Below are positions 9,183-53,675 of a stretch of DNA of 64,000 nt, piece after piece. The stretch is from assembly GCA_019694515.1 (NCBI GenBank), contig JAIBBU010000010.1:35496-99495 (forward strand), written 5' to 3'. The notes under the pieces were generated by a model. The model saw only the letters and a program-made list of their open reading frames with translations. It was not told where the DNA came from and did not search any database. The translations under genes and the position numbers were made by a program. Position 1 is the stretch's first letter, and every line of letters starts with the position of its first letter. The DNA comes from Oligoflexia bacterium. Lineage in GTDB: Bacteria; Bdellovibrionota_C; UBA2361; JBGSMV01.

Positions 9183-10694
9183 TTGGCCATTATAATCGAT
9201 GACATCTCCAGAACCTTCAGAGAATTCTTGATTCTCCCTGGGCTGACCCGTAAAGAGCATATCCCCGGTAACACCAGCGTTCGCACCCCGATTCAGAGAT
9301 ATAGCAGGGAAAAAGGCCCCGGAATCTGTTTAAACGTACCCTTTACCTCGGCGGCGATGCAGGCCGTGTCGGGAACCGAGCTCGCGATTGCGCTTTCCCG
9401 TAAGGGCGGCTGCAGCTTTATTTATTGTTCGCAGCCGATTGAAGAGCAGGCCGCCATGGTGCGCAAAGTCAAGGAGCACAAGGCTGGATTTGTCGACTCG
9501 GATTCAAACTTACCGGTCTCGGCGACATTGCAGGACGCCGTCGATCTAAGACGCCGGACCGGGCATTCAACCATTGCCATCACAGCCGATGGCGGAAGGC
9601 ACTCGAAGTTGGTGGGAATTCTCACCAGCAAAGATTTTTGGGAATTCAAGGATGATCTTTCGCAGCCGATCAAGAACTATTTCACGCCGCTTGAAAAACT
9701 GGTGTTGGCCGAAGAGGGAATCTCCCTACAAGAAGCCACCGACAAACTTTGGAAACACAAGAAAGAGTGCTTGCCGATTATCGATAAAGATGGCCGGCTG
9801 CGCTCGCTGGTATTTAGACGCGACTATTTTGACCATAAGTCCAATCCGGACGAATTGACCGATGATAAGAAACGGCTTTTTGTGGGTGCCGCTCTAAATA
9901 CCTTCGATTACAAAACCCGAGCGCGCGCATTGGTTGATGCCGGTGCCGATGTGCTGTGTTTCGATTCTTCAGACGGATATTCAGAGTGGCAAACGGAGGC
10001 CGCCCGATATCTGCGGCAAGAATTCGGAGAAAAGATCATTTTAGGCGGCGGCAATGTCGTTACCCGCGAAGGCTTCAGATATCTGGCACAAGAAGCCAAG
10101 CTTGATTTTATTAAGGTTGGCATCGGGGGCGGCTCTATCTGCATTACCCGCGAGCAAAAAGGCATTGGACGTGGACAGGCTTCGGCAGTCCTAGAAGTAG
10201 CAGACGAGCGTGACAAGTACTTTAAGGAAACCGGCATTTACGTGCCGATTTGCTCGGACGGCGGATTGAACAACGACACCGAGATTATTTTGGCGATGGT
10301 TCTCGGTGCCGATTTCGTGATGATGGGGAAATATTTCGCACAAACACATGAGAGTCCTACGCCGAAAATTACCTATAAGAGCAGGGTTTATAAGCCGTAC
10401 TGGGGAGAGGGTTCAAACCGCGCCCGAAACTGGGCGCGATATAAAGAGGGAGAGAGCGGCCCGATGCTGTTTGAGGAAGGTGTTGACGCCTATGTGCCGT
10501 ACAGCGGGCACCTCTCGGACAAGGTCGATATCTCGATCGCTAAGTTGAAGGCCACGATGTGCAACAGCGGAGCTAACAATCTCAAGGAATTTCATCAGAA
10601 CACCCGAGTAACCCGCGTTTCTGAGTTGACGATTGTGGAGGGCGGGGCCTCAACGGTGGAGCAGTTAGATCGCATCTATACTGAACGTGAATAA
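9183..10694 (+). CDS. IMP dehydrogenase (IMPDH/GuaB) family protein with an inserted CBS pair; TTG start proposed (track ORF begins at 9048)
   Basis: Catalytic loop [20 protein letters not shown] (compare GIGPGSICTTR in GuaB), and [25 protein letters not shown] (compare [20 protein letters not shown]). The N-terminus [24 protein letters not shown] (compare [24 protein letters not shown]). A purine-rich stretch precedes the TTG at 9183. It diverges enough from canonical GuaB that I leave the subfamily open. Confidence 0.75.
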
Positions 10695-11092
10695 TGCCGC
10701 CAACTCGCCAGTTCATCCAAAATTGTGCGGCGCTCCAGGGACGCCTTAGGGTAGGTGAGTTGGAGCCGGGGGTGCGTGTCGCCCGCGGCTTTGCGGATCT
10801 GGGATTTGAACTCTTTATGATCTTAAGTCCGCACAAGATGGTCTCACTTTATACCGGGAAGAGTGTCGAAATTGCGGAGACGGAGCATGCTCAGTTGGTG
10901 CCGGTGCCGTCGCCTGACGAACTGGTTGATTTAATCTCCCGTAACAATTTCGATATCGATGGCCTGCATTTTATTGAGCAGCGGTATTGGCGACTGACAT
11001 TAAGAGATGTGAAAAGCGGTGCTCAGCAGCCGTTCGAGGCGGCGACTCTCGAGGAGGTGCTGCTAAAGGGGCTGGTGTATTCTCTAGGGTGA
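10694..11092 (+). CDS. Hypothetical protein, translationally coupled (TAATG overlap) to the IMPDH-family gene
   Basis: 132-aa ORF whose start overlaps the upstream stop. No recognised domain. The true start could be an internal Met (MILSPHKMVSLYTG...). Confidence 0.4.
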   Translation: MPPTRQFIQNCAALQGRLRVGELEPGVRVARGFADLGFELFMILSPHKMVSLYTGKSVEIAETEHAQLVPVPSPDELVDLISRNNFDIDGLHFIEQRYWRLTLRDVKSGAQQPFEAATLEEVLLKGLVYSLG

Positions 11093-11096
11093 ATAG

Positions 11097-11699
11097 ATGT
11101 ATCAAACTGCACCTAAAACTCGCCTGATCTTAGCCTCGGCTTCGCCGCGCCGGAGTCAACTTTTATCGGGAGTTGGCATCAATTATGAAATCATGGCGTC
11201 GGGCTGCGACGAAACACCGCTCGTAAACGAGACTGCTACTGATATGGTTAGACGCCTGGCGCTTGATAAGGCCCGCTTCGTCGCCCGTTCCCACCCCGAT
11301 GCCTGGGTAATCGGTGCGGATACGACAGTGGTGGTGGACGGCGAGATCCTCGGCAAGCCCAACAATCATGCTGATGCCGTTCGCATGCTGTCGCTGCTGC
11401 AGGGCCGCGAGCATCAGGTCGCGGGAGCGTTTGGAATCGTGTGTGCGGCCAGGGCACTGGAGGAGGTTGAGGTGCATACTTCAACAGTTCATATGGTGAA
11501 TCTCGGCAAGGAGGCAGTAGCAGCGTATGTTCACACCGGCGAGCCGATGGACAAGGCGGGGGCCTACGCTATTCAGGGAGTCGGCGCCGGACTGATCGAG
11601 GCGGTCGACGGCTCATATACCAATGTCGTGGGACTTAATCTCTCAGCGCTGCTTAAGAGACTTCTAAAGCTGCAGGTGATTAAGCTTGCTATCCCATGA
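11097..11699 (+). CDS. maf: Maf-like nucleoside triphosphate pyrophosphatase (septum formation protein Maf)
   Basis: LILASASPRRSQLL ... GADTTVVVDGEILGKP ... AYAIQG are Maf family signatures. Confidence 0.9.
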   Translation: MYQTAPKTRLILASASPRRSQLLSGVGINYEIMASGCDETPLVNETATDMVRRLALDKARFVARSHPDAWVIGADTTVVVDGEILGKPNNHADAVRMLSLLQGREHQVAGAFGIVCAARALEEVEVHTSTVHMVNLGKEAVAAYVHTGEPMDKAGAYAIQGVGAGLIEAVDGSYTNVVGLNLSALLKRLLKLQVIKLAIP

Positions 11700-13344: not shown

Positions 13345-15078
13345 TTAGTTCGGTCGGACGATCTGTACGATCTCACTGGCAGCACTGCGATTTCCTGCCA
13401 GGTCACGAGCCACGATTCGATACTCTACGTGGTCGCGCCCCTCCGGGAATTCCTCAGCAAATCCGGGACGATCCTCAGAGTTGCTTAGTTCAGCAATCAA
13501 CTCGCCATCTCTAAAGATTTCGTAATAATAAACACCTGAACCGGAATCAGCCGGACGATCCCACTCCAAATTTATCTCCACATAAGAGCCCGAGCGCCCA
13601 ATGAATGATTCAATTGCTGCCACCTGCTCCGGCGCAATCCGATCGACCCAAATCTGAATCGCTGTTGATACGCGCGGATGAACGAAAGGATCCTGATTGG
13701 AATCATCGAAATCAAACCCGATGGAGTATCGTCCGTCAGTAATTTCCGCCGGTGGTAAAACAGCGGCAGTCCCCTGCGCAAAGCTGCCCAATGAAAGTGT
13801 CATGTCAGGAAACGAGCGCATGACCCGCCAGCCATCTGGCAACGCAAAGTCAGCCCTGTAAGCGCTGCTGCTTGCGCAGTAGCGGTCTTGGTTATGAAGC
13901 GTTACCGAAAACTCTACTGGAGTCGCCGTTTGGTTGGTGCCATAGGCGCCGGGCCAGTGCCACGAATCGATGCGGACCGGCTGAATATCGCATAGCGGAG
14001 GAGCCTCCATCTCTATCTCGATCTCAGCCGATCTCTTGTTCCTAGATACCACTCTAATCCGCACTCCCCGTTCTGACTCAATAAATTCCTGTCCCAAATC
14101 GAGACGGCTCAGGAGTGCCGTGTAATTGCGGGGCAAGGTTGTATGCACAGAGACCTTCCAGGCATAGGCCTCTTCCAGATCGATTGAATAGCGATCAGCG
14201 GGGGCACGATATGAGATATAGAGTGGAGAGGAAAAAAGGGGATGAGGAATTTTCAATACTTGAGGAAAAGAGCTTGTGCCCGATTGACGTTCGAGCGCTT
14301 CAATTCTGAAACGTCCCGAGTTGTGAACTTCCTGAATTGCTGCTGTGGGGAGCCAGCCCTGTTGGACTTGATGGGGCGCGTTAAAATGTCGCCAACCGAC
14401 GAAGGCGGACCCCATCGGGCAGGAGCGATCTCCGTACTCTCCATATATAGGATCGGTCGCATGTCCAATCCCCAATTGGTGGCCAAGTTCGTGCACTATT
14501 ACGTCCGGCTCTAGATAGTTTGCGGCGCTAATAAAACTTACGCAGCGCATTTGATTGGTACAGCCGCCATCAGTCACGCCAGCCATTGGCAATAGCGAAT
14601 CGCGGGGCACGATAAAGAGAAGATGCTGATAGGGCGTCAACTGCAGGTCCTGTGACAGCGCTGCGGCCTCGGCGCGGTTCTGCCAATTCTGGAGATCAAA
14701 CGGATCGGATCGCGATAACTTCACCGTAATCGCTTCAAAGACATCGGGAGTGAGGTCTCCATTTAGATCGGTATTTAAGCGTAGTCGACCGTGCGAGCTA
14801 GAGAGGAATAGCCCCGTGATGGAATTATTGGCGCTGTCCGTTCCGAACAGCCTCCTCAGTTGCTGCAGATCGTAGACGCCTTCGGCATCGCTAAACTCAA
14901 GTGGAATTACCGCTACAGAATCAGGGATCCAATGCGGTGCGAATGAAGGCACACTTTCCACTGCCGCGTCAGGTCCAGCGGAGAGGGGGCAGGCCCATGC
15001 CGAGTCGTATCTCAGAAGGAGGCTGGCCAATAGCATTAGCCATGGCCAAAAGTGTCTGTTCGAGAGCATTTCTATCAT
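13345..15078 (-). CDS. Secreted zinc metallopeptidase (HEXXH: VIVHELGHQLGIGHA) with a C-terminal FN3-like beta domain
   Basis: N-terminal signal peptide (WPWLMLLASLLL). HELGHQLGIGHATDP is a gametolysin/M11-like zincin motif. The C-terminus GSGVYYYEIFRDGELIAEL...EYRIVARDLAGNRSAAS resembles fibronectin type III. Confidence 0.7.
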   Translation of the reverse strand: MIEMLSNRHFWPWLMLLASLLLRYDSAWACPLSAGPDAAVESVPSFAPHWIPDSVAVIPLEFSDAEGVYDLQQLRRLFGTDSANNSITGLFLSSSHGRLRLNTDLNGDLTPDVFEAITVKLSRSDPFDLQNWQNRAEAAALSQDLQLTPYQHLLFIVPRDSLLPMAGVTDGGCTNQMRCVSFISAANYLEPDVIVHELGHQLGIGHATDPIYGEYGDRSCPMGSAFVGWRHFNAPHQVQQGWLPTAAIQEVHNSGRFRIEALERQSGTSSFPQVLKIPHPLFSSPLYISYRAPADRYSIDLEEAYAWKVSVHTTLPRNYTALLSRLDLGQEFIESERGVRIRVVSRNKRSAEIEIEMEAPPLCDIQPVRIDSWHWPGAYGTNQTATPVEFSVTLHNQDRYCASSSAYRADFALPDGWRVMRSFPDMTLSLGSFAQGTAAVLPPAEITDGRYSIGFDFDDSNQDPFVHPRVSTAIQIWVDRIAPEQVAAIESFIGRSGSYVEINLEWDRPADSGSGVYYYEIFRDGELIAELSNSEDRPGFAEEFPEGRDHVEYRIVARDLAGNRSAASEIVQIVRPN

Positions 15079-17743: not shown

Positions 17744-19039
17744 ATGGACGATTGGAAATCAAAAGCGGTTGCTCCCGGCGATTGCATCAAGCTCTTAAAG
17801 AATAACAATAACGTATACATTCACGGCGCGGCTGCTACGCCCACGCCGTTGTTGCAGGCACTTTCGGATAACCACGACCTGCATGGACTCAAGCTTTTTC
17901 ATCTGCATCTTGAAGGGCAGGTGCCATTTGCTGAAGGCGATCGATCAGAGGGCGCGCTCTCGGTCTCCATGTTTACCGGCCCGGCGCTGCGGGCGCCGAT
18001 CGCAGCGGGCCATGCTGATTACATGCCGGTATTTCTCTCTGATATCCCGGGATTGTTTCGCAGCGGACAGATTCCGCTGGATGCTGCGCTATTGCAGCTT
18101 TCGCCGCCGGATTCGCATGGTTTCTGCTCGCTAGGGACTTCGGTTGATACTGCGCGGGCCGCGGCTGACTCGGCCAAGCTGATCATTGCGGAAATTAATA
18201 TGCGGATGCCGCGCACACACGGCAGCACCCTCGTAAAATTTGATGACATTGATGCCTTCACGATTTCTGATCGTCCCTTAATTGAGCATCAACCTCGGCC
18301 TGAAACTCCGGTAGACGGCAGAATTGGGGAGCTGATTGCAAATCTAATTGAAGACCGTTCGACCTTGCAGGTTGGTGTCGGAGCCATTCCGGATGCGGTT
18401 CTTTCCCGGCTACGAGGTAAAGCCGATTTGGGCGTGCATACCGAGACCTTTTCAGATGGCTTGGTGGAGTTGGTGCGGCTGGGAGTCGTTACGAACCGCT
18501 ATAAGGCTCTTTCGCCAGGGCGTATCGTGACCAGTTTTGTTTCTGGATCGCGCGGGGTATTAGATTTTGTGGACGATAATCCGCTTGTACATTTCTTGCC
18601 TTGTGATGAAACCAACGACACGGCTCTGATCCGGAAGAACGATAGGGTAGTTGCGGTTAATTCGGCTATACAGATCGATCTCAGTGGACAGGTTTGCGCC
18701 GACTCGATTGGGCATAAGATCTATTCGGGAATTGGAGGGCAGGTGGATTTTATCCGGGGCGCCGCGCTTTCAAAAGGCGGCAAGCCGATCATCGCATTGC
18801 CATCGACTGCACAGAAGGGGACTGTCTCCAGGATCGTAATGGAGCTTAGTCCGGGAGCGGGCGTCGTAACAACTCGCGGACATATCCACTGGGTGGTAAC
18901 CGAGTACGGCGCGGTAAATTTGCACGGCAAGACACTGCGTCAGCGAGCTGAATTGCTGATCTCGATCGCCCATCCAGACTTCAGGCAGGAGCTGCGTTCG
19001 ACCTTAGCCGGAGTGCGTCATTTTGTGGTTGGCGAGTAG
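17744..19039 (+). CDS. Acetyl-CoA hydrolase/transferase family protein (4-hydroxybutyrate/succinyl-CoA:acetate CoA-transferase-like)
   Basis: 431 aa. N-terminal KLLKNNNNVYIHGAAATPTPLLQAL and C-terminal YSGIGGQVDFIRGAALSKGGKPIIALPST are family signatures. Confidence 0.85.
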   Translation: MDDWKSKAVAPGDCIKLLKNNNNVYIHGAAATPTPLLQALSDNHDLHGLKLFHLHLEGQVPFAEGDRSEGALSVSMFTGPALRAPIAAGHADYMPVFLSDIPGLFRSGQIPLDAALLQLSPPDSHGFCSLGTSVDTARAAADSAKLIIAEINMRMPRTHGSTLVKFDDIDAFTISDRPLIEHQPRPETPVDGRIGELIANLIEDRSTLQVGVGAIPDAVLSRLRGKADLGVHTETFSDGLVELVRLGVVTNRYKALSPGRIVTSFVSGSRGVLDFVDDNPLVHFLPCDETNDTALIRKNDRVVAVNSAIQIDLSGQVCADSIGHKIYSGIGGQVDFIRGAALSKGGKPIIALPSTAQKGTVSRIVMELSPGAGVVTTRGHIHWVVTEYGAVNLHGKTLRQRAELLISIAHPDFRQELRSTLAGVRHFVVGE

Positions 19040-19065: not shown

Positions 19066-21147
19066 CTAAGCGCTGGCTTGCTCCTCGCCGCGGCGGGTCA
19101 CCAGCTTTTCCTGCAGATGACTTGGCACATCTTGATAGTGACTGACACTCATGGTGAAGGTGCCTTGGCCTGAGGTCAAAGTCCCCAGGATCGCCCCGTA
19201 TTCAAGGAGTTCGACCATTGGCACCTGTGCTTCAATCTCTTGCGCGCCCTCGGTCGCATTGAGATTCTGCACCCGCCCGCGGCGTGATGATAAATCCTTA
19301 AGTACCTCACCGGTATACTGGTCCGGAACAATCACATCCAAGGCCATGATCGGTTCGAGCAGCACCGGATGTGCCTGCTCATAGGCCAGCTTCATCGCGA
19401 TCGCACCCGCGGTTTGAAACGCGTAATCCGACGAATCGACCTGGTGGTATGATCCGTCGTAAACCGCGACCTTCAGATCTGTCACCGGGGAACCGTTCAG
19501 TGGGCCACGCAACAACGACTCTTCGACGCCCTTCTTGATCGATCCGATATACTGGCGGGGAATCGCGCCACCGGTGACAAGATCGACAAACTCGAATCCG
19601 GAATTACGGGGCAGAGGAGTAACCTCAATGAAGCAGTTGGCAAATTGCCCGTGACCGCCGGTCTGCTTTTTGAGTTTGCCCTGCACCTTCACGGCCTTCG
19701 AGAGCGTCTCCCGGTATGGAACCTTGGGCGCTCTTAAGCGCGCCTTACCGCCATATTTTCTGGTCAAGCGCTCTAATGCAATGTCGATATGGGTCTGTCC
19801 CATGCCTGAAAGGATCATTTCGTGGGTCTGACCATCCCGATAAAGATGTAGAGTCGGATCTTCTTCAGCCAAGCGCGCTAGGCCGGCTGCTACTTTCTCT
19901 TCACTCTTGGGATCCTGGGCCTCGACTGCGTACATGATCGGGGCCTCGGCATACTTCACCTGCGGATATCGGAGGGCATTGTCGACATCACACAACGTAT
20001 CGCCGGTGGAGGTTTCATTCATCTTGGCAATTGCTCCAATCTGGCCGGCATACAATCTTTCGGTGGCCTCCAGCTTTGCGCCCTGCACCAAATAGAGGTG
20101 ACCTGAACGCTGCTCCGTCTGTTGCGTAGCATTGAGCATGCGCTGATGGGGCGCGAGTGTGCCCGATATTACGCGTACCATCGAAAGCTTTCCGGAGAAT
20201 TGATCGATCACTGTTTTTAACACGATCGCCGAGAAGGGGATTTCTGGATCGCAGCGCCGCACTTCGGTCCGTTCGGCGTCGCCTAACGCAACACCTTGGA
20301 ATGGGCGTGTGGCATCTCGATCTGGAGGCGAGGGCAAATAGTGGACAATCGCTTCCATCAGCGCCTCGATTCCGGAATTAGCGAGCGCCGAACCGCATAG
20401 GACCGGAATAAATTCTCGCGCAATTACGGAGCGTCTTAGAGCCTGCTCGATCTCCTCAATGCTGAGCTCTTCGCCTCCAAGATATTTCTCTAACAGAGCC
20501 TCGTCGTTCTCGACCACCTTTTCGACCAATTGGGTACGGAGTCGGGTGACCTCGCTCAATAAATGCCCCGGGATTTCGCAGGGAGCAGAGCGGCCATCGC
20601 GGGTGCTCCAGGCTTTCATTCTAATCAGATCGACGATCCCCAGCTCTTGAGGTCCGGTGCGAATCGGAATCACGATCGGCTGTGCGCTGGCATGCAGCTG
20701 ATCCCGGGTGCTTTGGATAGCATGCATGAAATCACTTTCCGGAAGATCGGTATGACTCATGAAGGCGATCACCGGCAGCTCCTGCTCTTCCAGCATCTTC
20801 CAGAGACGCACGGTCTCCGGTTTGACGCCATCCACCCCCGAAATCACCAAAACAGCGCCATCGGCGCCGGGGAGCACGCCCCGGGTGCCTTCTAAGAAGT
20901 TAAAATAGCCCGGCGTATCGATAATGTTGATAGTGTGATCTTTCCAATCAAAATGTCCGACGTGCGGGGTGATGGCGATCTTGTGCGCCACCTCCTCCGG
21001 CTCCACCCGCATGACAGCCGCACGCTCTTCCAGCGAATTAATGGCATGCGCCTGAAAAAGCAGCGCCTGAATTAGCGCCGTTTTACCAGCTCCGCCATGC
21101 GCAATCATGGCGACATTCCTTGTATTTTCTGCTCTGATTGGGTCCAT
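19066..21147 (-). CDS. Divergent elongation factor G-like translational GTPase (EF-G paralogue)
   Basis: 693 aa with the five-domain EF-G layout. P-loop AHGGAGKT. Switch II reads DTPGYFNF rather than DTPGH(V/M)DF, and the NKxD G4 motif is degraded to SHTD. It sits 3 nt downstream of the sigma-54 activator gene on the same strand. Confidence 0.85.
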   Translation of the reverse strand: MDPIRAENTRNVAMIAHGGAGKTALIQALLFQAHAINSLEERAAVMRVEPEEVAHKIAITPHVGHFDWKDHTINIIDTPGYFNFLEGTRGVLPGADGAVLVISGVDGVKPETVRLWKMLEEQELPVIAFMSHTDLPESDFMHAIQSTRDQLHASAQPIVIPIRTGPQELGIVDLIRMKAWSTRDGRSAPCEIPGHLLSEVTRLRTQLVEKVVENDEALLEKYLGGEELSIEEIEQALRRSVIAREFIPVLCGSALANSGIEALMEAIVHYLPSPPDRDATRPFQGVALGDAERTEVRRCDPEIPFSAIVLKTVIDQFSGKLSMVRVISGTLAPHQRMLNATQQTEQRSGHLYLVQGAKLEATERLYAGQIGAIAKMNETSTGDTLCDVDNALRYPQVKYAEAPIMYAVEAQDPKSEEKVAAGLARLAEEDPTLHLYRDGQTHEMILSGMGQTHIDIALERLTRKYGGKARLRAPKVPYRETLSKAVKVQGKLKKQTGGHGQFANCFIEVTPLPRNSGFEFVDLVTGGAIPRQYIGSIKKGVEESLLRGPLNGSPVTDLKVAVYDGSYHQVDSSDYAFQTAGAIAMKLAYEQAHPVLLEPIMALDVIVPDQYTGEVLKDLSSRRGRVQNLNATEGAQEIEAQVPMVELLEYGAILGTLTSGQGTFTMSVSHYQDVPSHLQEKLVTRRGEEQASA

Positions 21148-21149
21148 CT

Positions 21150-22181
21150 TCAGTGCTCCATTTTTGAGTTGTGATTAGCTAAACCATATCTATTCAATTT
21201 CTTCCAAAGCGTGACGCGGCTAAATCCCAACATTGCCGCTGCTTTGGTTTTGTTGCCGTCACTGGCTTCCAGTGCGTCAAGAATCGCGAGCTTCTCTTCC
21301 TCTACCGGGATAGCGTGACTAGATCGATAGTGCTGGCGTTCGACGCGCTGACTGAGGCCGGCAGGGTCGGAATGACTAAGTAAGTCGGGCAGGTGCTGCA
21401 TCTCGATTGCGCCGCTCTTTGCGATCACAAAGGCGTGCTCAAGTGCATTCTCAAGCTCGCGCACGTTGCCGGGCCATTGGTATTGCTCGAAGAGCTTTGC
21501 TACTTCGTCTGATAATCCGGTGATCGATTTTGAAAATCGCTGATTGAATTTAGAGATGAAATAGCTGCTTAGAGCCAGGATATCCTGCGAGCGGTTGCGC
21601 AATGGGGGAATACGTAAGGGGAATACATTGATGCGGTAATAGAAATCCTCCCGAATTCTTCCTCGCGCCACGAGATCTTCGAGGTGGCGATTGGTGGCGG
21701 TAATGATCCGAATGTCGGCCTTGCGGGTCAGCGCTTCGCCTACGCGAGAATATTCGTGGGATTGCAGGAGCCGGAGTAATTTTACCTGCATGTCCGGAGA
21801 GACATCTCCAATCTCATCCAGGAATATCGTACCGTCATGTGCATATTCCACGATGCCCTGCTGATCACGATGTGCATCAGTGAACGCGCCCTTAACGTGG
21901 CCGAATAGCGTGCTCTCCAGCAGGTTATGAGGGATGGTGGAGCAGTTGACCTTGGCGAATCGCCCCGCGCGCCTACCGCTCAAGTGGTGGATGGCATCAG
22001 CTACGAGTTCTTTGCCGACCCCGCTCTCGCCGTAGATGTGCACAGTTACATCCGTCGGCGCGACTAACCCGATTAATTCATAAAGATGCATCATTAAGGG
22101 GTGTGATCCGATCAGACGGTGAAATCTGTACGGAGGCTGGGACTCAAGACTGGCGGGTTGGTCGGGCATAACGGGCGGCAT
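21150..22181 (-). CDS. Sigma-54-dependent transcriptional activator of PspF/HrpS type (AAA+ sigma-54 interaction domain plus C-terminal Fis-type HTH; no N-terminal sensor or receiver domain)
   Basis: Walker A GESGVGKE, the ESTLFGHVKGAFTDA (GAFTGA-type) loop, Walker B IFLDEIGD, and the C-terminal HTH LGFSRVTLWKKLNRYGL. The protein begins about 25 residues before the AAA+ core. Confidence 0.9.
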   Translation of the reverse strand: MPPVMPDQPASLESQPPYRFHRLIGSHPLMMHLYELIGLVAPTDVTVHIYGESGVGKELVADAIHHLSGRRAGRFAKVNCSTIPHNLLESTLFGHVKGAFTDAHRDQQGIVEYAHDGTIFLDEIGDVSPDMQVKLLRLLQSHEYSRVGEALTRKADIRIITATNRHLEDLVARGRIREDFYYRINVFPLRIPPLRNRSQDILALSSYFISKFNQRFSKSITGLSDEVAKLFEQYQWPGNVRELENALEHAFVIAKSGAIEMQHLPDLLSHSDPAGLSQRVERQHYRSSHAIPVEEEKLAILDALEASDGNKTKAAAMLGFSRVTLWKKLNRYGLANHNSKMEH

Positions 22182-22476
22182 CCTTTACCACGCAGGAACC
22201 CAAAAGTGTTAACCAGCTAACCCGGCCGGGGCGGCGAGAGAACGCTCATCGGGCCTCTCCTATGTAATCATGGCCGGCTACAAATTCAAATAAAAACCGC
22301 GAAATATTTGAGTAATATTGAAACACCAAACGATGCGTCGAGAGGTTGTAAGCGGCGCGTTAACAGCAAACGCTAACTGCCGCGGCCGAACTGAAGTTCA
22401 GGTTTACACTCAAGATTTAATGAACTGATCTTTATGCTCAATTCGATGGTGAGTAAGAAATTCCTGAATGGGCGGC

Positions 22477-22492
22477 TGGCATGCAGATTGCT
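22477..22492 (+). promoter_or_regulatory. Sigma-54 (RpoN) -24/-12 promoter TGGCAT-N5-TTGCT upstream of the Hsp20 gene
   Basis: CTGGCATGCAGATTGCT matches the TGGCAC-N5-TTGCW consensus at the invariant GG and GC with correct spacing, about 85 nt upstream of the hsp20 ATG. The activator gene is transcribed divergently. An AT-rich tract (about 22285..22330) lies in between, consistent with an IHF-type bend site. Confidence 0.6.
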
Positions 22493-22576
22493 GTCCTAGA
22501 CCACGGACTCTGGGTGGTTCGTCCTGGGGCTAATCCTAGAATCCTATTTTAATCCATCTTTGGATTGGAGAATCGT

Positions 22577-23023
22577 ATGGAATTCTTCCCCAGCATTCTT
22601 CCGGAAACTCGTTCGACATTGTTTGCTCAGCCATTCCGCGCGCTAGAGGAGGCCGTGAATAAAATGTGGCCGGCCTTTAATGCTCTGGGCCAGGTGGTGC
22701 CGCGAACATTTGCATTAGACGTGGAAGAACTGCCTGACAAGTATCGGATTAAGGCCGATTTGCCAGGAATTGATCGAAAATGTGTCCATATTTCATTCGA
22801 GCAGCCAATGCTGACGATTGAAATTGAAGTCAATAAAGAGGAGGAAAGAAAAGAGGGCACTTTCTTGGCTCGCGAGAGACTGTACAGCACAACCGCGCGT
22901 TCGATTCCGCTGCCCCTCGCAGATGCGAAAGGCAATGTCGATGCGGTGATGAAGGAAGGAGTGCTAACAATTACTGTCCCCAAGAGCCACGAGAAGCAGA
23001 CCAAGACGATTGAAATACACTAG
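22577..23023 (+). CDS. Hsp20/alpha-crystallin family small heat-shock protein
   Basis: Alpha-crystallin domain (DVEELPDKYRIKADLPGIDRKCVHISFEQPMLTIEIE...GVLTITVPK). GGAGAA lies 5 nt upstream of the ATG at 22577. Confidence 0.85.
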   Translation: MEFFPSILPETRSTLFAQPFRALEEAVNKMWPAFNALGQVVPRTFALDVEELPDKYRIKADLPGIDRKCVHISFEQPMLTIEIEVNKEEERKEGTFLARERLYSTTARSIPLPLADAKGNVDAVMKEGVLTITVPKSHEKQTKTIEIH

Positions 23024-23165
23024 CGTTCAATTAAGATGCTGCTGAGGATCTTGCAGCCTGGAGCCCCCGCCCGCTTGGGGCTCGCTCCGGCGGCGCAAGA
23101 ATTCATAGCGCAGCGGTCATCGCTTCACAGATGACTGGATCTGAAGGGGCCACTTCAGATCGAAG

Positions 23166-23197
23166 GCGCGTCTAGTCCAGGCGCGCCTTTTTTTCTA
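23166..23197 (+). terminator. Rho-independent terminator after hsp20 (GGCGCGtctagtccagGCGCGCC + TTTTTTT)
   Basis: GC-rich 6 to 7-bp stem followed by a 7-T run. A second small hairpin CTGAAGgggccaCTTCAG sits just upstream. Confidence 0.6.
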
Positions 23198-25209: not shown

Positions 25210-26982
25210 TTACAGTCGGCCTTGATCTTTGCTCTCCCCTCGCAAAATCTGCAGCGCTTTGCGGGTAAGAAGATCTAGGAGATCGTTAGAACTACCGGGA
25301 TTACCAGGCTGTTGGCGCTCCTCGGCGGCTCCGAGAAGAATTCGCGCATGCATCCGTGCCCAGCGGATCTTCTCGGGGGTATGGCAATAGTCGAGCGCGC
25401 TCTGTAGTTCGCTGTTTTCTTCCAGCCGAATTGCGCCTTTTGCCAATTTCTCACGATCGCAATTTTCCCAGGCGCGAAGAATTCTATAGGTTAAAAGATC
25501 CTCAACCTGACGGGGACTGAGGCCGGCGCGCTGCTGCTGGATCTGTTCCGTAAGTTCTCGGTAATTTACCCCCGGCCCATCAAAGAAGATCAGGATGTCA
25601 TTCAAGAGCGTTTCGCGGCGCATGGCGCGGTACTCGTCAGAATCGATTCCCGGCAGATCGGTCTCTTTAATGCGTGAGGGCAGGCTTGCTTCCTCCTGCA
25701 GCACTGATTGCCCGGCAGTTGAGGTTGCTGTATTGCGGCCGCCGCTGCTCTGTGTCGCTGTTGCTGTGGGCCTTGCACTGCGGAGGCCAGCAGCATCGCC
25801 TCGATTTGGATCGCCGCCGGTCGCCTGATCTGGAGATGGATCGCCGGATTCTTGTTGCCGCTGTCTGCGGCGGAGCAGAAATAACAAGCCTAAGGGAATC
25901 GGATAGAGAGCTTTGGAGTCGTGATCGACATGTCCCTGCACCGTCGCATCGACTCGGCGTTTCGAGTAAATTATTTCTGCTAACTCTCGATTCAGCTCGG
26001 GATCCTTAATGCGACCAGCGCAATAGGCTTTAACCATAGTGAAGATGCGCTCGTCCTCGGTTGCGCCGCTGTAGTCCATGGAGAGTTCAGTCAGGCGGCC
26101 CCAATCCTCGTCCGAGAAACCCAGCTCCCTCCCAATCACTCGAACCCGCATGGGGCTGCTCTCTTGCAGCGCATTCATGATGCGCTTCGCGGCATCGTCC
26201 CCCCGCAGAGCCCCCAGGTCTTCGTTCTCTGGGTCAGATTCCGACAAGCTCTCAGGGCCCAAAGCGGCTGGCCCTTCTGGTGACGCGTTTCCTACGGCGG
26301 TAAGCGAATCTACGGTTGAGTCATGAAGAAGTTCTGGTCCATGCGCGCGGCGATAAGCAGCCTTAGCCCAGTCGAAGCCATGCAGTTCATCTGCAACCTG
26401 GTGCAGCAGCTGTGCGCGCACGTCGGCGGCAAAGCGGTCGTGATCTTCGGGGCGCAGTGAGCGCGCCAGATCAAACTGACGTGCGTATTCGTAGGGAATT
26501 GTGAATGTACTTTCATAGCGCTGGGTCTTATGCGAAACGGTAACCAAGCTTATCGGACAAACTGCGCTCCAGAGATCGTGAAGTGCGACATGGTAGCGCC
26601 CGGTTGCAGGATCGCGCTCGATGATGTTGACGTTGATCTCTGGGAATTTGGCCTTGGCTCCCGCCGTCGAATCCAATCCTGCGGATTCCGGAAGCGTCAG
26701 CTCAACTCCCCATTTGGTCTTGAGGTCGACAAGCGAGGGGCCTGAAGCGTGAGCACGCAGCGGTGAATCGGCAGCGTGGGCAGCTATGATTGCAGGGTCC
26801 GCCTCCGCGGTTTTCGGGTGAGCTATAGCAGCAAGTAAACCAACGATCTTGGCGATGGCGCGGAAGCGCTCCGCGATGGATTGCGGCGGACCGCCAATTA
26901 CATTTAGATCTGGTGCGGCCTCGGTGTTTGAAATGAGCCGAGCTGTATCAGAACTGGGATCTTTAGGGCCATGGCCTGCCAT
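25210..26982 (-). CDS. Large hypothetical protein (about 590 aa) with a Gly/Ser/Thr/Pro-rich disordered segment and one central hydrophobic stretch; no recognised domain
   Basis: Start moved to the ATG at 26982 (GAAAGGAGctccgcATGGCAGGCCATGGC, a strong RBS). It is transcribed divergently from the RiPP precursor gene. Confidence 0.6.
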   Translation of the reverse strand: MAGHGPKDPSSDTARLISNTEAAPDLNVIGGPPQSIAERFRAIAKIVGLLAAIAHPKTAEADPAIIAAHAADSPLRAHASGPSLVDLKTKWGVELTLPESAGLDSTAGAKAKFPEINVNIIERDPATGRYHVALHDLWSAVCPISLVTVSHKTQRYESTFTIPYEYARQFDLARSLRPEDHDRFAADVRAQLLHQVADELHGFDWAKAAYRRAHGPELLHDSTVDSLTAVGNASPEGPAALGPESLSESDPENEDLGALRGDDAAKRIMNALQESSPMRVRVIGRELGFSDEDWGRLTELSMDYSGATEDERIFTMVKAYCAGRIKDPELNRELAEIIYSKRRVDATVQGHVDHDSKALYPIPLGLLFLLRRRQRQQESGDPSPDQATGGDPNRGDAAGLRSARPTATATQSSGGRNTATSTAGQSVLQEEASLPSRIKETDLPGIDSDEYRAMRRETLLNDILIFFDGPGVNYRELTEQIQQQRAGLSPRQVEDLLTYRILRAWENCDREKLAKGAIRLEENSELQSALDYCHTPEKIRWARMHARILLGAAEERQQPGNPGSSNDLLDLLTRKALQILRGESKDQGRL

Positions 26983-27252
26983 GCGGAGCTCCTTTCGTGA
27001 GACTGAACTAGGGAACGCTGCGGGCCACTCATCCAAAGTGGTCGCTTTTAGACGCTGCCTACCTTCGTTATGGAGAACCGCAGCTCTCCGTAGCATAAGG
27101 GCGCAGGGGGATTTACCTGGGGATCCCATAAAAAATCGCGCCGTATTTTCATTTTGCAGTGCCCGACAATGTGTTAGTTAAACGGCTTAACATTTGCTCC
27201 GGGAACTGAAACAAGGTTTGCGGGGCCAGCTCAAAACCTTTTTGGAGGCTTA

Positions 27253-27642
27253 ATGAAGAAGAACCGTAATTTATCGAACCTTTCGAAAGCATCACTGGCC
27301 CTCGGAGCAGTGGCGGGTCTAAGGCTAGCAGACGCCCACGCTATGCAGAGCTTTGACTATCACATGCTGGGTAGCGGCGCTGTCGTCCGGGGCGAGCTGC
27401 TGGAAAAGGCTGCTAATCCCGTTTACGCGGCGCATGAGGACGCGGAGGACGGCGAAGCCGGGTCCGGAAAGACGGTTGAAGGAAACTGCGGCGAAGGCAA
27501 GGAAAAATCGGCGGAAGCTAACTGCGGCGAAGGGAAGGATAAGGCCAAGAAGGAGCATGAGGCCGATCAGCATAAAGATAAGTCGAAGGATGCCGAAGGC
27601 AAGTGCGGTGAGGGCAAATGCGGCGAAGAGATGGATATGTAG
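27253..27642 (+). CDS. HvfA/bufferin-like RiPP precursor: small Sec-signal-peptide protein with Cys repeats NCGEGK, NCGEGK and KCGEGKCGEE
   Basis: 129 aa. Signal peptide MKKNRNLSNLSKASLALGAVAGLRLADAHA (AxA cleavage site). The mature part is Lys/Glu/Asp-rich with four Cys, all in (E)GKCG / NCGEG context. GGAGG RBS. It lies immediately upstream of the DUF692 and DUF2063 genes. Confidence 0.7.
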   Translation: MKKNRNLSNLSKASLALGAVAGLRLADAHAMQSFDYHMLGSGAVVRGELLEKAANPVYAAHEDAEDGEAGSGKTVEGNCGEGKEKSAEANCGEGKDKAKKEHEADQHKDKSKDAEGKCGEGKCGEEMDM

Positions 27643-27681
27643 CCTTTATCTGAGTCTCGGGGAGGCCTCCTCCCTGAGACA

Positions 27682-28530
27682 TTGGGAGAAATCATGCCAG
27701 CCGTAAGCGGAGTAGGGATTGGACTGCGTCGTGATTTGGCCGATGAAATCATTGCGCTAGAGAACAGTCCGATTCGTTTTCTGGAATGCGCCCCGGAGAA
27801 CTGGATGGGGGTCGGTGGATATTGGGGGAAAAAGCTGCGGCAAGCTGCTGAACATTATCCCTTCAACTGTCACGGACTGTCGCTCTCTCTGGGGAGCCCC
27901 GAGCCGCTCGATCATATCTTCTTGCAGCGGCTAAAGAAATTCTTTGCCGACTTTCCGGTGCAGATCTACTCCGAGCATCTGAGTTTCACCAAATGCGACA
28001 ACGCTCATACCTATGAGCTGCTGCCGATGCCCTTTCGTTCTGACGCGGTGCGTCATGTAGCGGGCCGCATTCGAGAGGTGCAAGAGATTTTGGAACGGCA
28101 GATCGCGATTGAAAATGTTTCTTACTACACCCCGGTAGCTCCCGAGCTGGGCGAGGCTGAATTCATCGCGGCGATTCTCAAAGAAGCCGACTGCAAGCTG
28201 CTGCTGGATGTGAACAATGTGTTCGTGAATGCCTTTAATCACGGCTATGATGCGCGCGGCTTCATCTCGGCCTTGCCCCTCGATCGTGTTGCTTACATCC
28301 ATATGGCGGGCCACGAGCAGCGCACTCCGGATCTGATTATTGATACGCATGGCGAGCCGATTATCGATCCGGTCTATGAACTTTTTGAGTGGACGATTGA
28401 GCGTTTACACCCCGTGCCGGTGCTCCTGGAGCGTGATTATAACTTCCCGGAGTTTCCGGATTTACTAGCAGAAGTTTCGAGGTTGCAAGCGATTGCTTCC
28501 AAAGTTTGGCACCAACAGGCGGCGGCTTAA
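27682..28530 (+). CDS. DUF692-family multinuclear non-heme iron oxidase (MNIO; MbnB/TglH/HvfB/BufB family RiPP maturase)
   Basis: GVGIGLRRDL, the SEHLSF motif, ENVSYY, LLLDVNNVFVNAFNHGYDA, IHMAGH and IDTHG are all hallmark DUF692 motifs in the correct order. Confidence 0.9.
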   Translation: MGEIMPAVSGVGIGLRRDLADEIIALENSPIRFLECAPENWMGVGGYWGKKLRQAAEHYPFNCHGLSLSLGSPEPLDHIFLQRLKKFFADFPVQIYSEHLSFTKCDNAHTYELLPMPFRSDAVRHVAGRIREVQEILERQIAIENVSYYTPVAPELGEAEFIAAILKEADCKLLLDVNNVFVNAFNHGYDARGFISALPLDRVAYIHMAGHEQRTPDLIIDTHGEPIIDPVYELFEWTIERLHPVPVLLERDYNFPEFPDLLAEVSRLQAIASKVWHQQAAA

Positions 28531-28532
28531 AA

Positions 28533-29294
28533 ATGGCGCTTGAAAAGAATACCACCGAAGTGATGCGTGAATTTGCGCAGTTTTGCCGCACTGGGGAGTA
28601 TCATCCGATCGCGGGGGTGCGGGACGATCGTGCCCAAGAGTATCGCCGTCTGGCATTCAATATCGTCGAGCACGCGTTGCGACGCGCATATCCTCTAACC
28701 GTCCGGGCGCTTGGAACGGAGTGGTCCGGGCTGATACAGCGCTTTTATGCCGAGTGGCCCCTGGTGAGTCCGGAGCTGTGGAAGATGCCGCGTCAGCTAT
28801 GTGATTTTGTCGGCGGCACGCAGTACGGTATGGCGACGGGGCGTCCCTGGCTTAATGACCTGCTACGTTTTGAGTGGTTGGAGATCGAGGTCTTCATGAT
28901 GGAGGATGTCGATCCTGGGGTGGTTAACGCCAAGGGGGATTTGGCCGGCCAGCCGGTAGTGCTGAATCAAGAGGTCGTTTTTTCGCGCTTTGAATATCCG
29001 GTCTTCAAAGTCGCAGCGGACCAGCTGACGGCACAGCAGGGCTGTTTTTTCCTGGCAACCTACCGTCATCCGCAAACACTAGAAGCTTGCTATACTGAGC
29101 TCTCGCTCTTATTCTTAAGGGTGCTTGAGATTCTGCAGATCCAGGAACTCTCCGGGAGTGCCGCGATCGAGCGAGCTGCTTCTGATTTGGGGATCGATCT
29201 GTCGGGCGGTGATGCGCGCCGCATGCTCGAGCTGCTCTCGGCTGCCCGGTCCGACGGTTTAATTTTAGGGGTAAGGAATGTTGATCTTCGCTAA
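28533..29294 (+). CDS. DUF2063-family partner protein of MNIO enzymes (MbnC/HvfC/BufC-like precursor-binding subunit)
   Basis: The start ATG lies 2 nt after the MNIO stop. DUF692 genes are characteristically followed by a DUF2063 gene. Sequence-level assignment is by context plus size, roughly 250 aa. Confidence 0.65.
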   Translation: MALEKNTTEVMREFAQFCRTGEYHPIAGVRDDRAQEYRRLAFNIVEHALRRAYPLTVRALGTEWSGLIQRFYAEWPLVSPELWKMPRQLCDFVGGTQYGMATGRPWLNDLLRFEWLEIEVFMMEDVDPGVVNAKGDLAGQPVVLNQEVVFSRFEYPVFKVAADQLTAQQGCFFLATYRHPQTLEACYTELSLLFLRVLEILQIQELSGSAAIERAASDLGIDLSGGDARRMLELLSAARSDGLILGVRNVDLR

Positions 29295-37056: not shown

Positions 37057-37686
37057 ATGGCATTCGGAAAGAAAAAGAAAGACAGCGAGGGCGAGCCGTT
37101 AGAGGCGCGCGATGCAGATTTTTCGACTCTGGACGGTGAAGAGTCGAGTACCCCTAATGGAGCTTCGGCAGAGGCGGCCGGGGCGGCGGAAGAGGAGCTT
37201 TTTAAGCTGCGGGAAGAGCTTAAGGACTCCCAGGACAAGTACCTGCGGCTGTTAGCCGAGTTTGACAATTATAAGAAGCGCGCCATCAAGGAACGAGCTG
37301 AAATTTTGAAATATCAGGGGGAGCGAATCTTCGTTGATATACTGGATATCGTCGATAATCTTGAGTTAGCACTGCAGCATAAGGACTCTGACCCAGCAAA
37401 GCTTAGGGCCGGCGTAGAGTTAATCTACAAGATGTTCATGGACGTGCTGGCGCGCTGGGAGGTTCGGGGCGAATCGGCGATTGGCAAGCTCTTCGATCCT
37501 GGGAGGCAGAACGCCATCAGCCGGGTCGAGCTGGAGGATAAGCCTCCCGGCACCGTGGTTTCTGAGCTGAAGAAAACTTACTCCTACAAGGATAAATTGT
37601 TGCGGCTGGGAGAGGTGGTGGTTGCGGCTGCGCGGGAGCCGGAAGAACCTGGCGAGTCCGATCCGGGCGAGAAGTCAGAGAGTTAA
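37057..37686 (+). CDS. grpE: Nucleotide exchange factor GrpE
   Basis: LREELKDSQDKYLRLLAEFDNYKKRAIKE ... FVDILDIVDNLELAL ... EVRGESAIGKLFDP. Confidence 0.9.
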   Translation: MAFGKKKKDSEGEPLEARDADFSTLDGEESSTPNGASAEAAGAAEEELFKLREELKDSQDKYLRLLAEFDNYKKRAIKERAEILKYQGERIFVDILDIVDNLELALQHKDSDPAKLRAGVELIYKMFMDVLARWEVRGESAIGKLFDPGRQNAISRVELEDKPPGTVVSELKKTYSYKDKLLRLGEVVVAAAREPEEPGESDPGEKSES

Positions 37687-37837
37687 CTTATTGTAATTAT
37701 TGAGCCATTAATTTTTAGGTAAGCGCTTGATAAATAAGGACTTCATGCTTACTCCTTAGATTCAAGAACGAGGAAGCAATCGAAGCTGCAACTAACCGTT
37801 TTTACATAATAAATAGAGATTAATTGGGGTTAAGATA

Positions 37838-39763
37838 ATGGGCAAAGTCATTGGAATTGATTTGGGGACAACCAACTCCTGCGTCGCCATCATGGAGGGA
37901 GGCTCTCCTACCGTGATCGCCAACAGTGAGGGCAGCCGCACGACACCGTCCGTGGTCGCGATGACTGAGTCTAACGAGCGTGTTGTTGGTCAGATCGCCA
38001 AGCGCCAAGCGGTAACTAATCCTAAGAACACCATCTTCGCCGTCAAACGGTTAATTGGGCGCAAGTTCAAATCATCCGAGGTCGACAAGGCCCGCAAGGT
38101 ATTGCCCTACGAGATTACCGAAGCCAGCAACGGTGATGCTTGGGTCAAGATGCGGGGCGAAGCCAAGAGCGCGCAAGAGGTCTCCGCCATGATCCTCACC
38201 AAGATGAAACAAACGGCGGAAGATTATTTGGGGGAGAAGATCACTGACGCCGTTATCACGGTGCCGGCTTATTTTGACGACGCTCAGCGCCAGGCCACTA
38301 AGGATGCCGGGCGCATCGCCGGGCTAAACGTCCAGCGCATTATTAACGAGCCGACCGCGGCTGCTTTGGCTTACGGTCTTGATAAGCGCGGGGAGAAGAC
38401 CGTCGCCGTATTCGATTTGGGAGGCGGTACCTTCGACGTTTCGATTCTAGAATTGGGCGACGGCGTGTTTGAGGTGAAGTCGACCAATGGCGACACGTTC
38501 TTGGGTGGTGAAGATTTCGATCTTAAGATCGTTGAATGGATCGCAGATGAATTCAAGAAACTGGAAGGCATCGATCTAAGAAAGGACACGCTAGCGCTGC
38601 AGCGCTTGAAGGAGGCCGCAGAGAAGGCCAAACACGAACTTTCTTCGTCGATCGAGACGGATATCAATCTGCCGTTTATTACGGCGGATGCTGCCGGTCC
38701 TAAGCATCTCAATATGAAACTGAGCCGTTCTAAGTTGGAGCAACTTTGCGCTGACTTATTGGCGCGGTTGGTAGCGCCCTGCCAAACGGCGCTGAAAGAT
38801 GCCGGTATGAAGCCCTCCGACATCGGTGATGTGATTCTGGTCGGTGGTATGACGCGCATGCCAGCCGTGCAGCAGAAGGTTAAGGAGATCTTCAACAAGG
38901 AGCCCTCCAAGAACGTCAACCCGGACGAGGCCGTAGCGATCGGCGCCGCGGTGCAGGCCGGAGTGTTGCAAGGCGAGGTCAAGGACGTACTGTTGCTGGA
39001 CGTCACCCCGCTCAGTCTTGGAATCGAGACCTATGGCGGCGTGTTCACCAAGCTGATCGAGAAGAATACTACGATTCCGACTAAGAAGTCGCAGATCTTC
39101 TCGACTGCGGCGGACAACCAGCCGGCTGTGTCGATTCATGTCTTGCAGGGCGAGCGTGAAATAGCCGAGCACAATAAGACGTTAGGGCGCTTTGAATTGG
39201 TTGGAATTCCACCCGCACCGCGTGGTGTGCCGCAGGTCGAAGTTACATTCGATCTCGACGCCAACGGTATCGTGCATGTGTCGGCAAAAGACCTCGGCAC
39301 AGGCAAGGAACAGTCGATTAAGATTACTGCCAGCTCTGGTCTATCTGAGGACGAGATCAAGCGCATGGTTAAGGATGCCGAGGCGCATTCCGAGGAAGAC
39401 AAGCAGCGCAAGGAGCTGGTAGAGGCGCGCAATCATCTCGACAGTTTGATTTACAGCACCGAGCGCACAGTTAACGAGTTTAAAGATAAGCTCGCTGCCG
39501 ATGATCAGGCCAAGTTAACCGCGGCTTTGGAGGAAGCTAAGAAAGCTCTCGATAGCAAAGATAAAACGGAGCTTGAGAAGGCGACCGAAAATCTCACCAA
39601 GGCCAGCCACAAACTATCTGAAGAGATGTACAAGAAGGCCGCATCCCAGCAACCCGGCGCTAACGGTGCCGCAGCCGATGGTCAGACTAATGGGGCGGCC
39701 GCTGACGGCAAACCTGACGAGAATGTCGTGGATGCCGATTTTGAAGAGGTCAAAAAGAATTAG
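37838..39763 (+). CDS. dnaK: Molecular chaperone DnaK (Hsp70)
   Basis: [35 protein letters not shown]. Full-length at 641 aa. Confidence 0.97.
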
Positions 39764-39815
39764 CGCGCGCTCTTTGCGGAGTGCGCTCGATAGCGTTGTA
39801 AGGAGGTTCTGACTG

Positions 39816-40934
39816 GTGGCGAGGCGTGATCCGTACGAAGTGCTCGGTGTATCGAGGACCGCCTCGCTAGACGAGATTAAGAAATCCTACCGCAAAAAGG
39901 CGCTGGAGCTGCATCCCGATCGAAATCCCGGCAATAAGGAGGCTGAAGAACGCTTCAAGGAAGCAGCTGAAGCCTACTCCATGCTCAGTGATCCGGAGGC
40001 GCGCCAGAAATATGATCAATATGGCTTTGCCGCATTTGAACAGGGTGCCGGATTCGGGGGCTTCCATGCCGACTTTTCCGAGTTCGAGGATATTTTCGGC
40101 GATCTATTTAGTAATTTCTTTGGCGGCGCTTTCGGGGGGTCCGGCCGACGTTCGCGCGGACGTTCCGGACGTGATCTAAAATACGATCTTGAGATTACTT
40201 TCGAGGAGGCTGCTTTTGGCGCGGAGAAGCAAATCGCCATTAGCAAACGTGTCTCTTGCGAAAGCTGTGAGGGTAGCGGCGCAGAAGGCAATTCGGGAGC
40301 TGAGACCTGCAGTCAGTGCCGGGGCAGCGGACAGATCGCATATCAACAGGGATTTTTCACGATTAGCCGTGCCTGCCATGTCTGTAGCGGCTCGGGAAAA
40401 GTGATCAAGAATCCCTGTAAGAGCTGTAGCGGCAGCGGTCTTAAGATCAAGGAGCATCAGCTAAATGTTAAGATCCCTCCGGGAATCGATAACGGCCAGC
40501 GCCTTAAGCTGCGCGGCGAAGGTGAGGCCGGCGCGCAGGGCGGATTGAACGGCGATCTCTACGTCAATATCGCGGTTAAACCACATCCAATCTTTCAACG
40601 TCAGGAAGGGGAAATTATTTGCGAGGTGCCCATATCTTACGCCACAGCAGTGTTGGGCGGCGAGGTCGAGGTGCCGACCCTGGAAGGTAAGGAAAATTTA
40701 AAGATTCCGTCAGGCACGCAGACCGGAAAAGTTTTTCGCTTGAAAAACCGCGGGATCCAGCATATCGGCAGCAGTCGCCGCGGGGACCAGCATGTACGAA
40801 TCTACGTGCGAGTCCCGAAAAAGGTTTCTGAAAAACAGCGCACACTGCTTGAGAAGCTGAAGGAATTCGAAAAAGAAGATATCAAACATGAGGACCGCGG
40901 GTTCTTCGATAAAGTTAAAGACATATTCGCGTAG
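39816..40934 (+). CDS. dnaJ: Molecular chaperone DnaJ (type I: J domain, G/F region, four CxxCxGxG zinc-finger repeats)
   Basis: [36 protein letters not shown] (with the HPD motif), and [35 protein letters not shown] start with AAGGAGG 8 nt upstream. Confidence 0.95.
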
Positions 40935-53662: not shown

Positions 53663-53675
53663 AACCAGGAGATTT

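Follow-up and report, generated by a model that had tools for sequence, protein, structure and literature searches.

Members of the EFG II/EF-G2 subfamily, as characterised in Thermus, Mycobacterium smegmatis and Bacteroides, are paralogues of elongation factor G (EF-G) that keep its five-domain fold, carry Tyr in place of the catalytic His and are encoded outside the str operon. In addition, the P-loop Asp, a monovalent-cation ligand, is replaced by Gly in this subfamily (Atkinson 2015, PMC4342817). The change of the catalytic residue, His88 to Tyr98, has been described structurally for M. smegmatis EF-G2 (bioRxiv 10.64898/2026.05.25.727771; PDB 9K0Z/9K10); the same protein has minimal ribosome-dependent GTPase activity (bioRxiv 10.64898/2026.05.25.727771), and mycobacterial EF-G2 has been reported as a stress-specific factor (bioRxiv 10.64898/2026.05.25.727771; PMC12775393). 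Thermus thermophilus EF-G-2 (1WDT/2DY1), with the motifs GHAGSGKT and DAPGY, hydrolyses GTP despite its Tyr and supports poly(Phe) synthesis (PMC3150367; bioRxiv 10.64898/2026.05.25.727771). Bacteroides EF-G2, represented by B. thetaiotaomicron structures (PDB 7UVP/8DMF), translocates without GTP hydrolysis according to Han et al. 2023, as cited in PMC12775393. Activators of sigma-54 RNA polymerase that lack a sensor domain are the other system of relevance here. PspF, which is controlled by PspA, consists of an AAA+ domain and a helix-turn-helix (HTH) only and is encoded divergently from a sigma-54-dependent stress gene. Small heat-shock genes may also lie behind a sigma-54 (-24/-12) promoter, as does ibpB of E. 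coli. COG0071 (IbpA) is found in predicted sigma-54 regulons (PMC12316311), and sensor-less activators are generally thought to require a partner protein (Kazakov 2015). Here we describe a locus in which both kinds of system adjoin, located in a 64-kb stretch of DNA from the metagenome-assembled genome of an Oligoflexia bacterium (contig JAIBBU010000010.1), the whole of which we call the window. We consider it probable that these are two separate things, a sigma-54 circuit driving an HSP20 gene (hsp20) and an EF-G2 paralogue that became joined behind the activator of this circuit in one lineage.

Both genes of the pair are on the minus strand. The activator gene (21150-22181, 343 aa; started at 22169 in the public annotation, which gives 339 aa) is followed directly by the EF-G-like gene (19066-21147, 693 aa), as a sequence-only reading of this DNA had noticed, and their stop and start codons are 2 nt apart (GAG CAC TGA AG ATG). 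The junction (21145-21163, minus strand) includes a GGAG ribosome-binding site 8 nt 5' of the EF-G2 ATG, within the end of the activator gene. With this layout, the two genes could be co-transcribed and translationally coupled, and in the window lineage EF-G2 is probably co-transcribed with the activator. On the other side of the activator, directly upstream and on the opposite strand, there is a gene that the sequence-only reading had missed together with its promoter. It encodes an HSP20/alpha-crystallin small heat-shock protein (22577-23023, plus strand, 148 aa; Pfam HSP20, E = 2e-16), and its ATG is preceded by GGAGAA. A divergent control region of 395 bp (22182-22576) separates it from the activator gene and contains a sigma-54 -24/-12 promoter, TGGCAT-N5-TTGC (22477-22491, plus strand), 85 nt 5' of the HSP20 ATG. 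Across the window, -24/-12 matches with at most one mismatch are as numerous as expected by chance (5 found vs 5.03 expected). Consequently, what supports the promoter call is its position, as none of the other four matches is intergenic, and its conservation between loci: a -24/-12 element is present 68-88 nt before the HSP20 start in all four loci in which this side of the activator is visible.

The three loci other than the window (L086, L089 and L090) encode orthologous activators with 62-65% identity, each divergent from a gene for an HSP20 of 148 aa that shares 51-54% identity with that of the window. None of them has an EF-G gene beside or downstream of the activator. One of the three activators (P0122) is sensor-less like that of the window. 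Since the divergent HSP20 gene and the -24/-12 element are kept in these loci, the conserved unit is the activator, the sigma-54 promoter and hsp20. Judged in the same way, the activator does without EF-G2; only the HSP20 gene is conserved as its partner, and this gene is most likely its target.

From the side of EF-G2, the picture is similar. The activator followed by EF-G2 is found only in the window and in two related loci, L004 (EF-G2 64% and activator 70% identical to those of the window) and L091 (63% and 68%), where the two genes overlap by 14 nt. In a neighbour-joining tree, the EF-G2s of these three loci form one clade. No activator is present beside the EF-G2 orthologues, 50-62% identical, in L001, L002, L003, L005, L092 and L093. 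Sharing of the operon linkage by orthologues had been set beforehand as a test of the pairing, and the pairing failed it; the absence of this linkage argues against EF-G2 being an obligatory partner of the activator. The comparison thus lends no support to a regulatory partnership of the kind that the sequence-only reading had envisaged; the pairing is real but confined to one small clade. The sister pair of this clade, P0004 (L002) and P0005 (L001), has no activator and keeps another neighbour of the window EF-G2 gene, an acetyl-CoA hydrolase/transferase gene (17744-19039, plus strand, Pfam; 66-68% identity). At 8222-9514 in L002, as in the window, it is convergent with EF-G2, whereas at 6241-7542 in L001 the two genes are divergent. 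Because it is common to a sister lineage without the activator, this gene marks the older context of EF-G2. The simplest history of the pairing would then be that the hsp20-activator module came to lie next to a pre-existing EF-G2/CoA-transferase neighbourhood once only, in an ancestor shared by the window organism and its two relatives.

Searches farther afield gave no indication of a wider linkage. Gene contexts in the rest of the EF-G2 family (Magnetofaba, Thermodesulfovibrionales, other Oligoflexia) are unrelated, and no conserved one was found among them. Before the activator-less EF-G2 genes of L001, L002, L003 and L005, no sigma-54 promoter was found other than a site with three mismatches 335 nt upstream in L003, which argues against EF-G2 being a detached member of the same regulon. 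A scan of genome contigs with the single EF-G2 protein used patterns that were too specific and returned L005 only. The patterns of a scan of metagenome contigs with the subclade alignment (KKQTGGHG, DGSYHxVDS) are common to canonical EF-G; it added no further loci of the subclade, and its 80 loci, all with at most 44% identity and none with an activator, HSP20 or CoA-hydrolase neighbour, are a weak negative control. As a separate observation, both loci whose activators are of the PAS-like form described below, L089 and L090, also encode a 537-aa translational GTPase of the RF3 type (10073-11686 and 9334-10947, respectively). Its gene follows 2-3 kb downstream of the hsp20-activator module, with an SbmA/BacA-type transporter gene in between. 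As both loci come from the same sample and have the same gene order, this proximity is probably a coincidence.

The EF-G-like protein itself belongs to a known family. All five EF-G domains are complete (Pfam GTP_EFTU, EF-G_D2, EFG_III, EFG_IV and EFG_C), and HMMER alignment with canonical EF-G bore out the motifs listed by the sequence-only reading: AHGGAGKT aligns with AHxDAGKT (AHIDAGKT), DTPGY (Tyr81) with DTPGH, and FMSHTD with FxNKMD. The G2 motif is HKIAIT, with Ala58 at the position of the canonical Thr, and G5 is CGSA. Using an alignment to Thermus EF-G-1 as the numbering frame, we checked the protein for the signature residues of EFG II, which in 1WDT numbering are Leu25, Thr291, Gly333, Lys352 and, in the domain IV loop, Lys471-Lys472 (Margus 2011, PMC3150367). 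Their counterparts in the window protein are Leu25, Thr312, Gly356, Lys375 and the KK of GKLKKQTGG; the exchange of the P-loop Asp for Gly, as AHxGxGKT, is represented by Gly19. Among NCBIfam models, NF009381 (PRK12740.1-5) is matched with 770 bits vs a cut-off of 583, and the Tet(M)/Tet(O) ribosomal protection model NF012153 reaches 282 of the 775 bits needed. The AlphaFold2 model (pLDDT 88.6, pTM 0.79) superposes on EF-G2 structures with TM-scores of 0.84 (1WDT), 0.89 (8DMF) and 0.88 (9K0Z), and on ribosome-bound EF-G with up to 0.91. The window protein is thus a member of the EFG II/EF-G2 subfamily, on a branch that in sequence is still near canonical EF-G. Little-diverged EFG II groups that lie close to the subfamily's root are known from delta-proteobacteria and Clostridia (Margus 2011, PMC3150367). 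The closeness to canonical EF-G fits such groups, although placing the window protein among them is our own inference.

To see how far the motif changes extend, we aligned the 120 closest database homologues, which belong to Oligoflexia, Bdellovibrionales, Magnetococcales, Nitrospirota/Thermodesulfovibrionales and Dadabacteria, together with the Thermus EF-G-2 reference (n = 121). In the column of the catalytic His, there is Tyr in 65 sequences, Phe in 46 and His in 3. Because Tyr or Phe occupies this position in 111 of the 121 sequences, Tyr81 is neither private to the window protein nor a sequencing or translation error, the explanation that the sequence-only reading had named as fatal to its proposal. 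The change is likewise no unrecognised anomaly, since it is a hallmark of EFG II/EF-G2 (DAPGY in 1WDT, Tyr98 in M. smegmatis EF-G2); in other words, the EF-G-like gene is a new member of a known and structurally characterised family. The P-loop Gly is found in 115/121 sequences and Ala as the first P-loop residue in 101/121. The fourth position of G2 is more variable (T 72, S 18, A 26, D 5). By contrast with the Tyr, SHTD is almost private to the window protein (Ser in 3, His in 6 and Thr in 1 of the 121), most of the wider family keeping NKMD. Members from Magnetococcales and Nitrospirota retain both an RGITI-like G2 and NKMD, so that the His alone is changed.

Erosion goes further in the subclade (P0001-P0027) whose members are about 50% or more identical to the window protein. 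Here Ala, Asp or Ser stands in for the G2 Thr (IAITPH, IDIT, ISIT), Ala and Asp being typical of this Oligoflexia-type subclade, and the G4 Lys is missing (NQxD, NHxD, TQxD), with SHTD of the window as the extreme case. GKA stands in place of GKT/S in the P-loops of P0012-P0016. Outside the subclade, Magnetococcus Mmc1_0124 (P0044) and Magnetofaba (P0045) have GGGGATT, without the P-loop Lys. The lost P-loop residues in EF-G2 relatives suggest repeated moves toward nucleotide independence. The window protein retains the P-loop Lys, the G3 and G4 Asp and the SA of G5. Mean column identity within the subclade is highest in domain IV (0.79), followed by domain III (0.74) and the G core (0.65), and domains III-V are strongly conserved over 26 subclade members. 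This pattern fits selection for contacts with the ribosome and its decoding centre, along with relaxed nucleotide chemistry. Because conservation is greatest in domains III-V and at the tip of domain IV, EF-G2 would most likely bind the ribosomal A site as EF-G does. By homology, it is probably an alternative, slow translocase or a ribosome factor for times of stress, with little or no need of GTP hydrolysis, in line with reports on EF-G2 of Bacteroides and Mycobacterium. The earlier idea of a GTPase-impaired stress factor holds in part: the protein is a specialised paralogue of EF-G whose GTPase centre departs from the canonical form, and its characterised relatives act in translation during stress or slow growth. 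The impairment does not follow from Tyr81 alone, because Thermus EF-G-2 with the same Tyr hydrolyses GTP.

The activator has the composition attributed to it by the sequence-only reading. Its domains are Sigma54_activat (residues 23-189; PF00158, E = 3e-63), AAA_lid_14 and a Fis-type HTH_8 (E = 2.5e-13) only; as the AAA+ domain begins already at residue 23, and upstream extension of the open reading frame (ORF) is not possible, there is no sensor domain. Together with a GAFTGA-type loop in a variant form, the AAA+ domain and the C-terminal HTH identify it as an enhancer-binding protein. In the L1 loop (residues 98-103), GAFTDA replaces the canonical sigma-54 contact sequence GAFTGA. GAFTDA recurs in 16/120 of the closest activator homologues (21/120 when GSFTDA and GAYTDA are included); the Gly-to-Asp change is conserved in the clade of the activator. 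The closest relatives are either sensor-less (334-348 aa) or longer, with a short PAS-like N-terminus (410-434 aa), and both forms keep the HSP20 pairing. No NCBIfam equivalog cut-off is reached by the activator. The resemblance to PspF lies in its being an AAA+ domain plus HTH encoded divergently from a sigma-54-dependent stress gene. Unlike in the PspF/PspA system, the target is HSP20 and not PspA (there is no pspA linkage), the score against the pspF model TIGR02974 is 227 bits vs a cut-off of 443, the contact loop is altered, and a controlling partner would be putative.

From what is established for enhancer-binding proteins, the activator would bind upstream sites in the 395-bp divergent region, and its AAA+ domain, by hydrolysing ATP, would remodel sigma-54 RNA polymerase at 22477-22491, open the promoter and turn on hsp20. 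A tentative upstream activator site is the inverted repeat GCGTT-N7-AACGC with TTAAC/CTAAC cores (22357-22377), about 105-120 bp upstream of the -24/-12 promoter. In L086, L089 and L090, too, elements containing TTAAC precede the promoter by some 85-120 bp; overall, such repeats recur about 100-120 bp upstream, where activator sites are usually placed. A second element, GTTAAC..GCTAAC (22208-22221), about 27 nt from the activator start codon, is possibly autoregulatory, again tentatively. An intrinsic-terminator-like hairpin of 12 pairs followed by a T run (23162-23190, plus strand) closes the HSP20 transcription unit. The arrangement as a whole resembles that of sigma-54-dependent small heat-shock genes such as ibpB and COG0071 IbpA in having a small heat-shock gene behind a -24/-12 promoter. 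It differs from them in that a dedicated, adjacent, sensor-less activator is conserved alongside, in a Bdellovibrionota-type lineage, and such an activator seems not to have been described in the literature on these genes. We also looked for an RNA thermometer in the hsp20 5' leaders and rejected it: the four leaders have no common fold, three of them give weak z-scores (-0.6 to -1.6), and that of L090 folds worse than its shuffled versions (+1.4).

How a sensor-less activator is controlled is a matter of speculation, and two candidates for a controlling partner are at hand. One is EF-G2, which might control the activator as PspA controls PspF and so couple ribosome status to sigma-54 transcription. 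The 2-nt gap in the window and the 14-nt overlap in L004 and L091 do suggest stoichiometric co-expression, and activators of this build are thought to need a partner (Kazakov 2015). Nonetheless, we regard this as very unlikely: three orthologous activators, the sensor-less P0122 among them, do without an EF-G neighbour and pair with HSP20, six EF-G2 orthologues do without an adjoining activator, and the linkage traces to a single clade. The other candidate is HSP20, acting as a negative-feedback partner whose free form would inhibit the activator and which unfolded clients would titrate away, with EF-G2 as a co-expressed stress-translation factor of the same proteostasis module. Here, conservation is favourable, as HSP20 is the sole gene kept beside the activator in all four loci with the upstream side visible, and the layout mirrors pspF/pspA, with a sensor-less activator divergent from a sigma-54-dependent target. 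The same pairing with or without the PAS-like N-terminus also implies that sensing can dispense with the N-terminal domain. It is tempting to speculate that PspA/PspF-like titration feedback is the most economical idea, because HSP20 is the only conserved neighbour of the activator. However, such feedback is itself inference, the loci compared revealed neither a conserved RNA thermometer nor another sensing element, and the activator might also be constitutively active and controlled by its own abundance; taken as a full explanation of the locus, it is possible but unlikely.

A different objection concerns EF-G2 itself, which might be the housekeeping EF-G or a decaying, pseudogene-like copy instead of a functional EF-G2. 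Its best sequence matches among solved structures are indeed canonical EF-Gs (512 bits vs 397 for 1WDT), and the rest of the genome is outside the view of the window, in which there is no other EF-G gene. Against this, the protein scores 607.7 bits with the canonical EF-G equivalog TIGR00484, below its cut-off of 659.4; all four motifs expected of a fusA product (AHIDAGKT, RGITI, DTPGH, NKMD) are changed while the EFG II signature residues are present; and the gene has no str-operon context, being flanked by the activator and CoA-transferase genes. The intact ORF of 693 aa and the strong conservation of domains III-V across the subclade argue against decay. We therefore consider this explanation extremely improbable.

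Several observations nevertheless weigh against our preferred view of a conserved hsp20 circuit to which an EF-G2 paralogue became joined. The HSP20 side was seen in four loci only, and L089 and L090, with the same sample and shared gene order, are probably close relatives. No single consensus for the upstream activator site was found in these four loci, where spacing and orientation vary, and the site is thus loosely defined. With respect to the subfamily assignment, the window protein stays below the cut-off of the EF-G2 equivalog NF009377 (PRK12740.1-1; 550 vs 890), the sibling model of PRK12740.1-5 that bears the name EF-G2, and it is nearer in sequence to canonical EF-G than to 1WDT. Unlike characterised EF-G2s, it has Ala16 instead of Gly16 as the first P-loop residue and SHTD instead of NKxD in G4. 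Gly16 is found in 86% of EFG II and is thus not absolute (Margus 2011, PMC3150367). The G2 motif of EFG II is relaxed from RGITI, yet Ser/Thr is still found at its fourth position, where the window protein (HKIAI) has Ala58. The operon structure, the activation of hsp20 and the activity of EF-G2 are all deduced from sequence, and rpoN and canonical fusA lie beyond the view of the 64-kb window. Finally, the tight junction is kept down to about 64% EF-G2 identity, which leaves room for a lineage-specific functional link between the activator and EF-G2.

Some other genes of the window are worth pointing out. The sigma-54 hsp20 module shares it with grpE, dnaK and dnaJ (37057-40934, plus strand) and a Lon protease gene (53640-56156, plus strand); no CIRCE element or good intergenic -24/-12 site was found near these. 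A likely cluster for a ribosomally synthesised and post-translationally modified peptide (RiPP) is located at 27253-29294 (plus strand). It begins with a 129-aa ORF that has a signal-peptide-like N-terminus and C-terminal CGEGK repeats (NCGEGKEK, NCGEGKDK, GKCGEGKCGEE), continues with a gene for a modification enzyme (MbnB/TglH/ChrH, DUF692-type; 27682-28530, E = 2e-99) and then has one for a DUF2063 protein (28506-29294); the arrangement resembles bufferin-type copper-binding peptide operons. A secreted-looking protein of 577 aa (13345-15078, minus strand) weakly matches the gametolysin (M11) metallopeptidases (E = 3.6e-10) and has a HELGH motif; this family is known mostly from green algae. 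For two long minus-strand ORFs, 25210-27129 (639 aa) and 48515-50614 (699 aa), Pfam gave no match at E <= 0.001.

The main value of these results is in correcting the record: the His-to-Tyr change of EF-G2 is a hallmark of the family and should not be flagged as anomalous. A bolder possibility, which we hold to be quite unlikely, is that the Oligoflexia-type EF-G2 may be an essentially nucleotide-independent ribosome binder. In the window lineage, it would have been recruited to join the sensor-less activator and HSP20 in a sigma-54 proteostasis module, where the activator would receive feedback on the state of translation or folding from either HSP20 or EF-G2. If true, this type would have gone further than the characterised EF-G2s, in that its G2 Thr, its catalytic His and the Lys of NKxD are gone. 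How far GTP can be dispensed with in translocation or in binding to the ribosome is a question opened by the work on Bacteroides EF-G2, and a subclade with stepwise-eroded G2, G4 and P-loop could serve to test it. As for the activator, it is part of an uncharacterised but conventional sigma-54 circuit. The conserved activator/HSP20 module of Bdellovibrionota-like bacteria would offer a compact system for learning how a sensor-less activator perceives proteotoxic stress.

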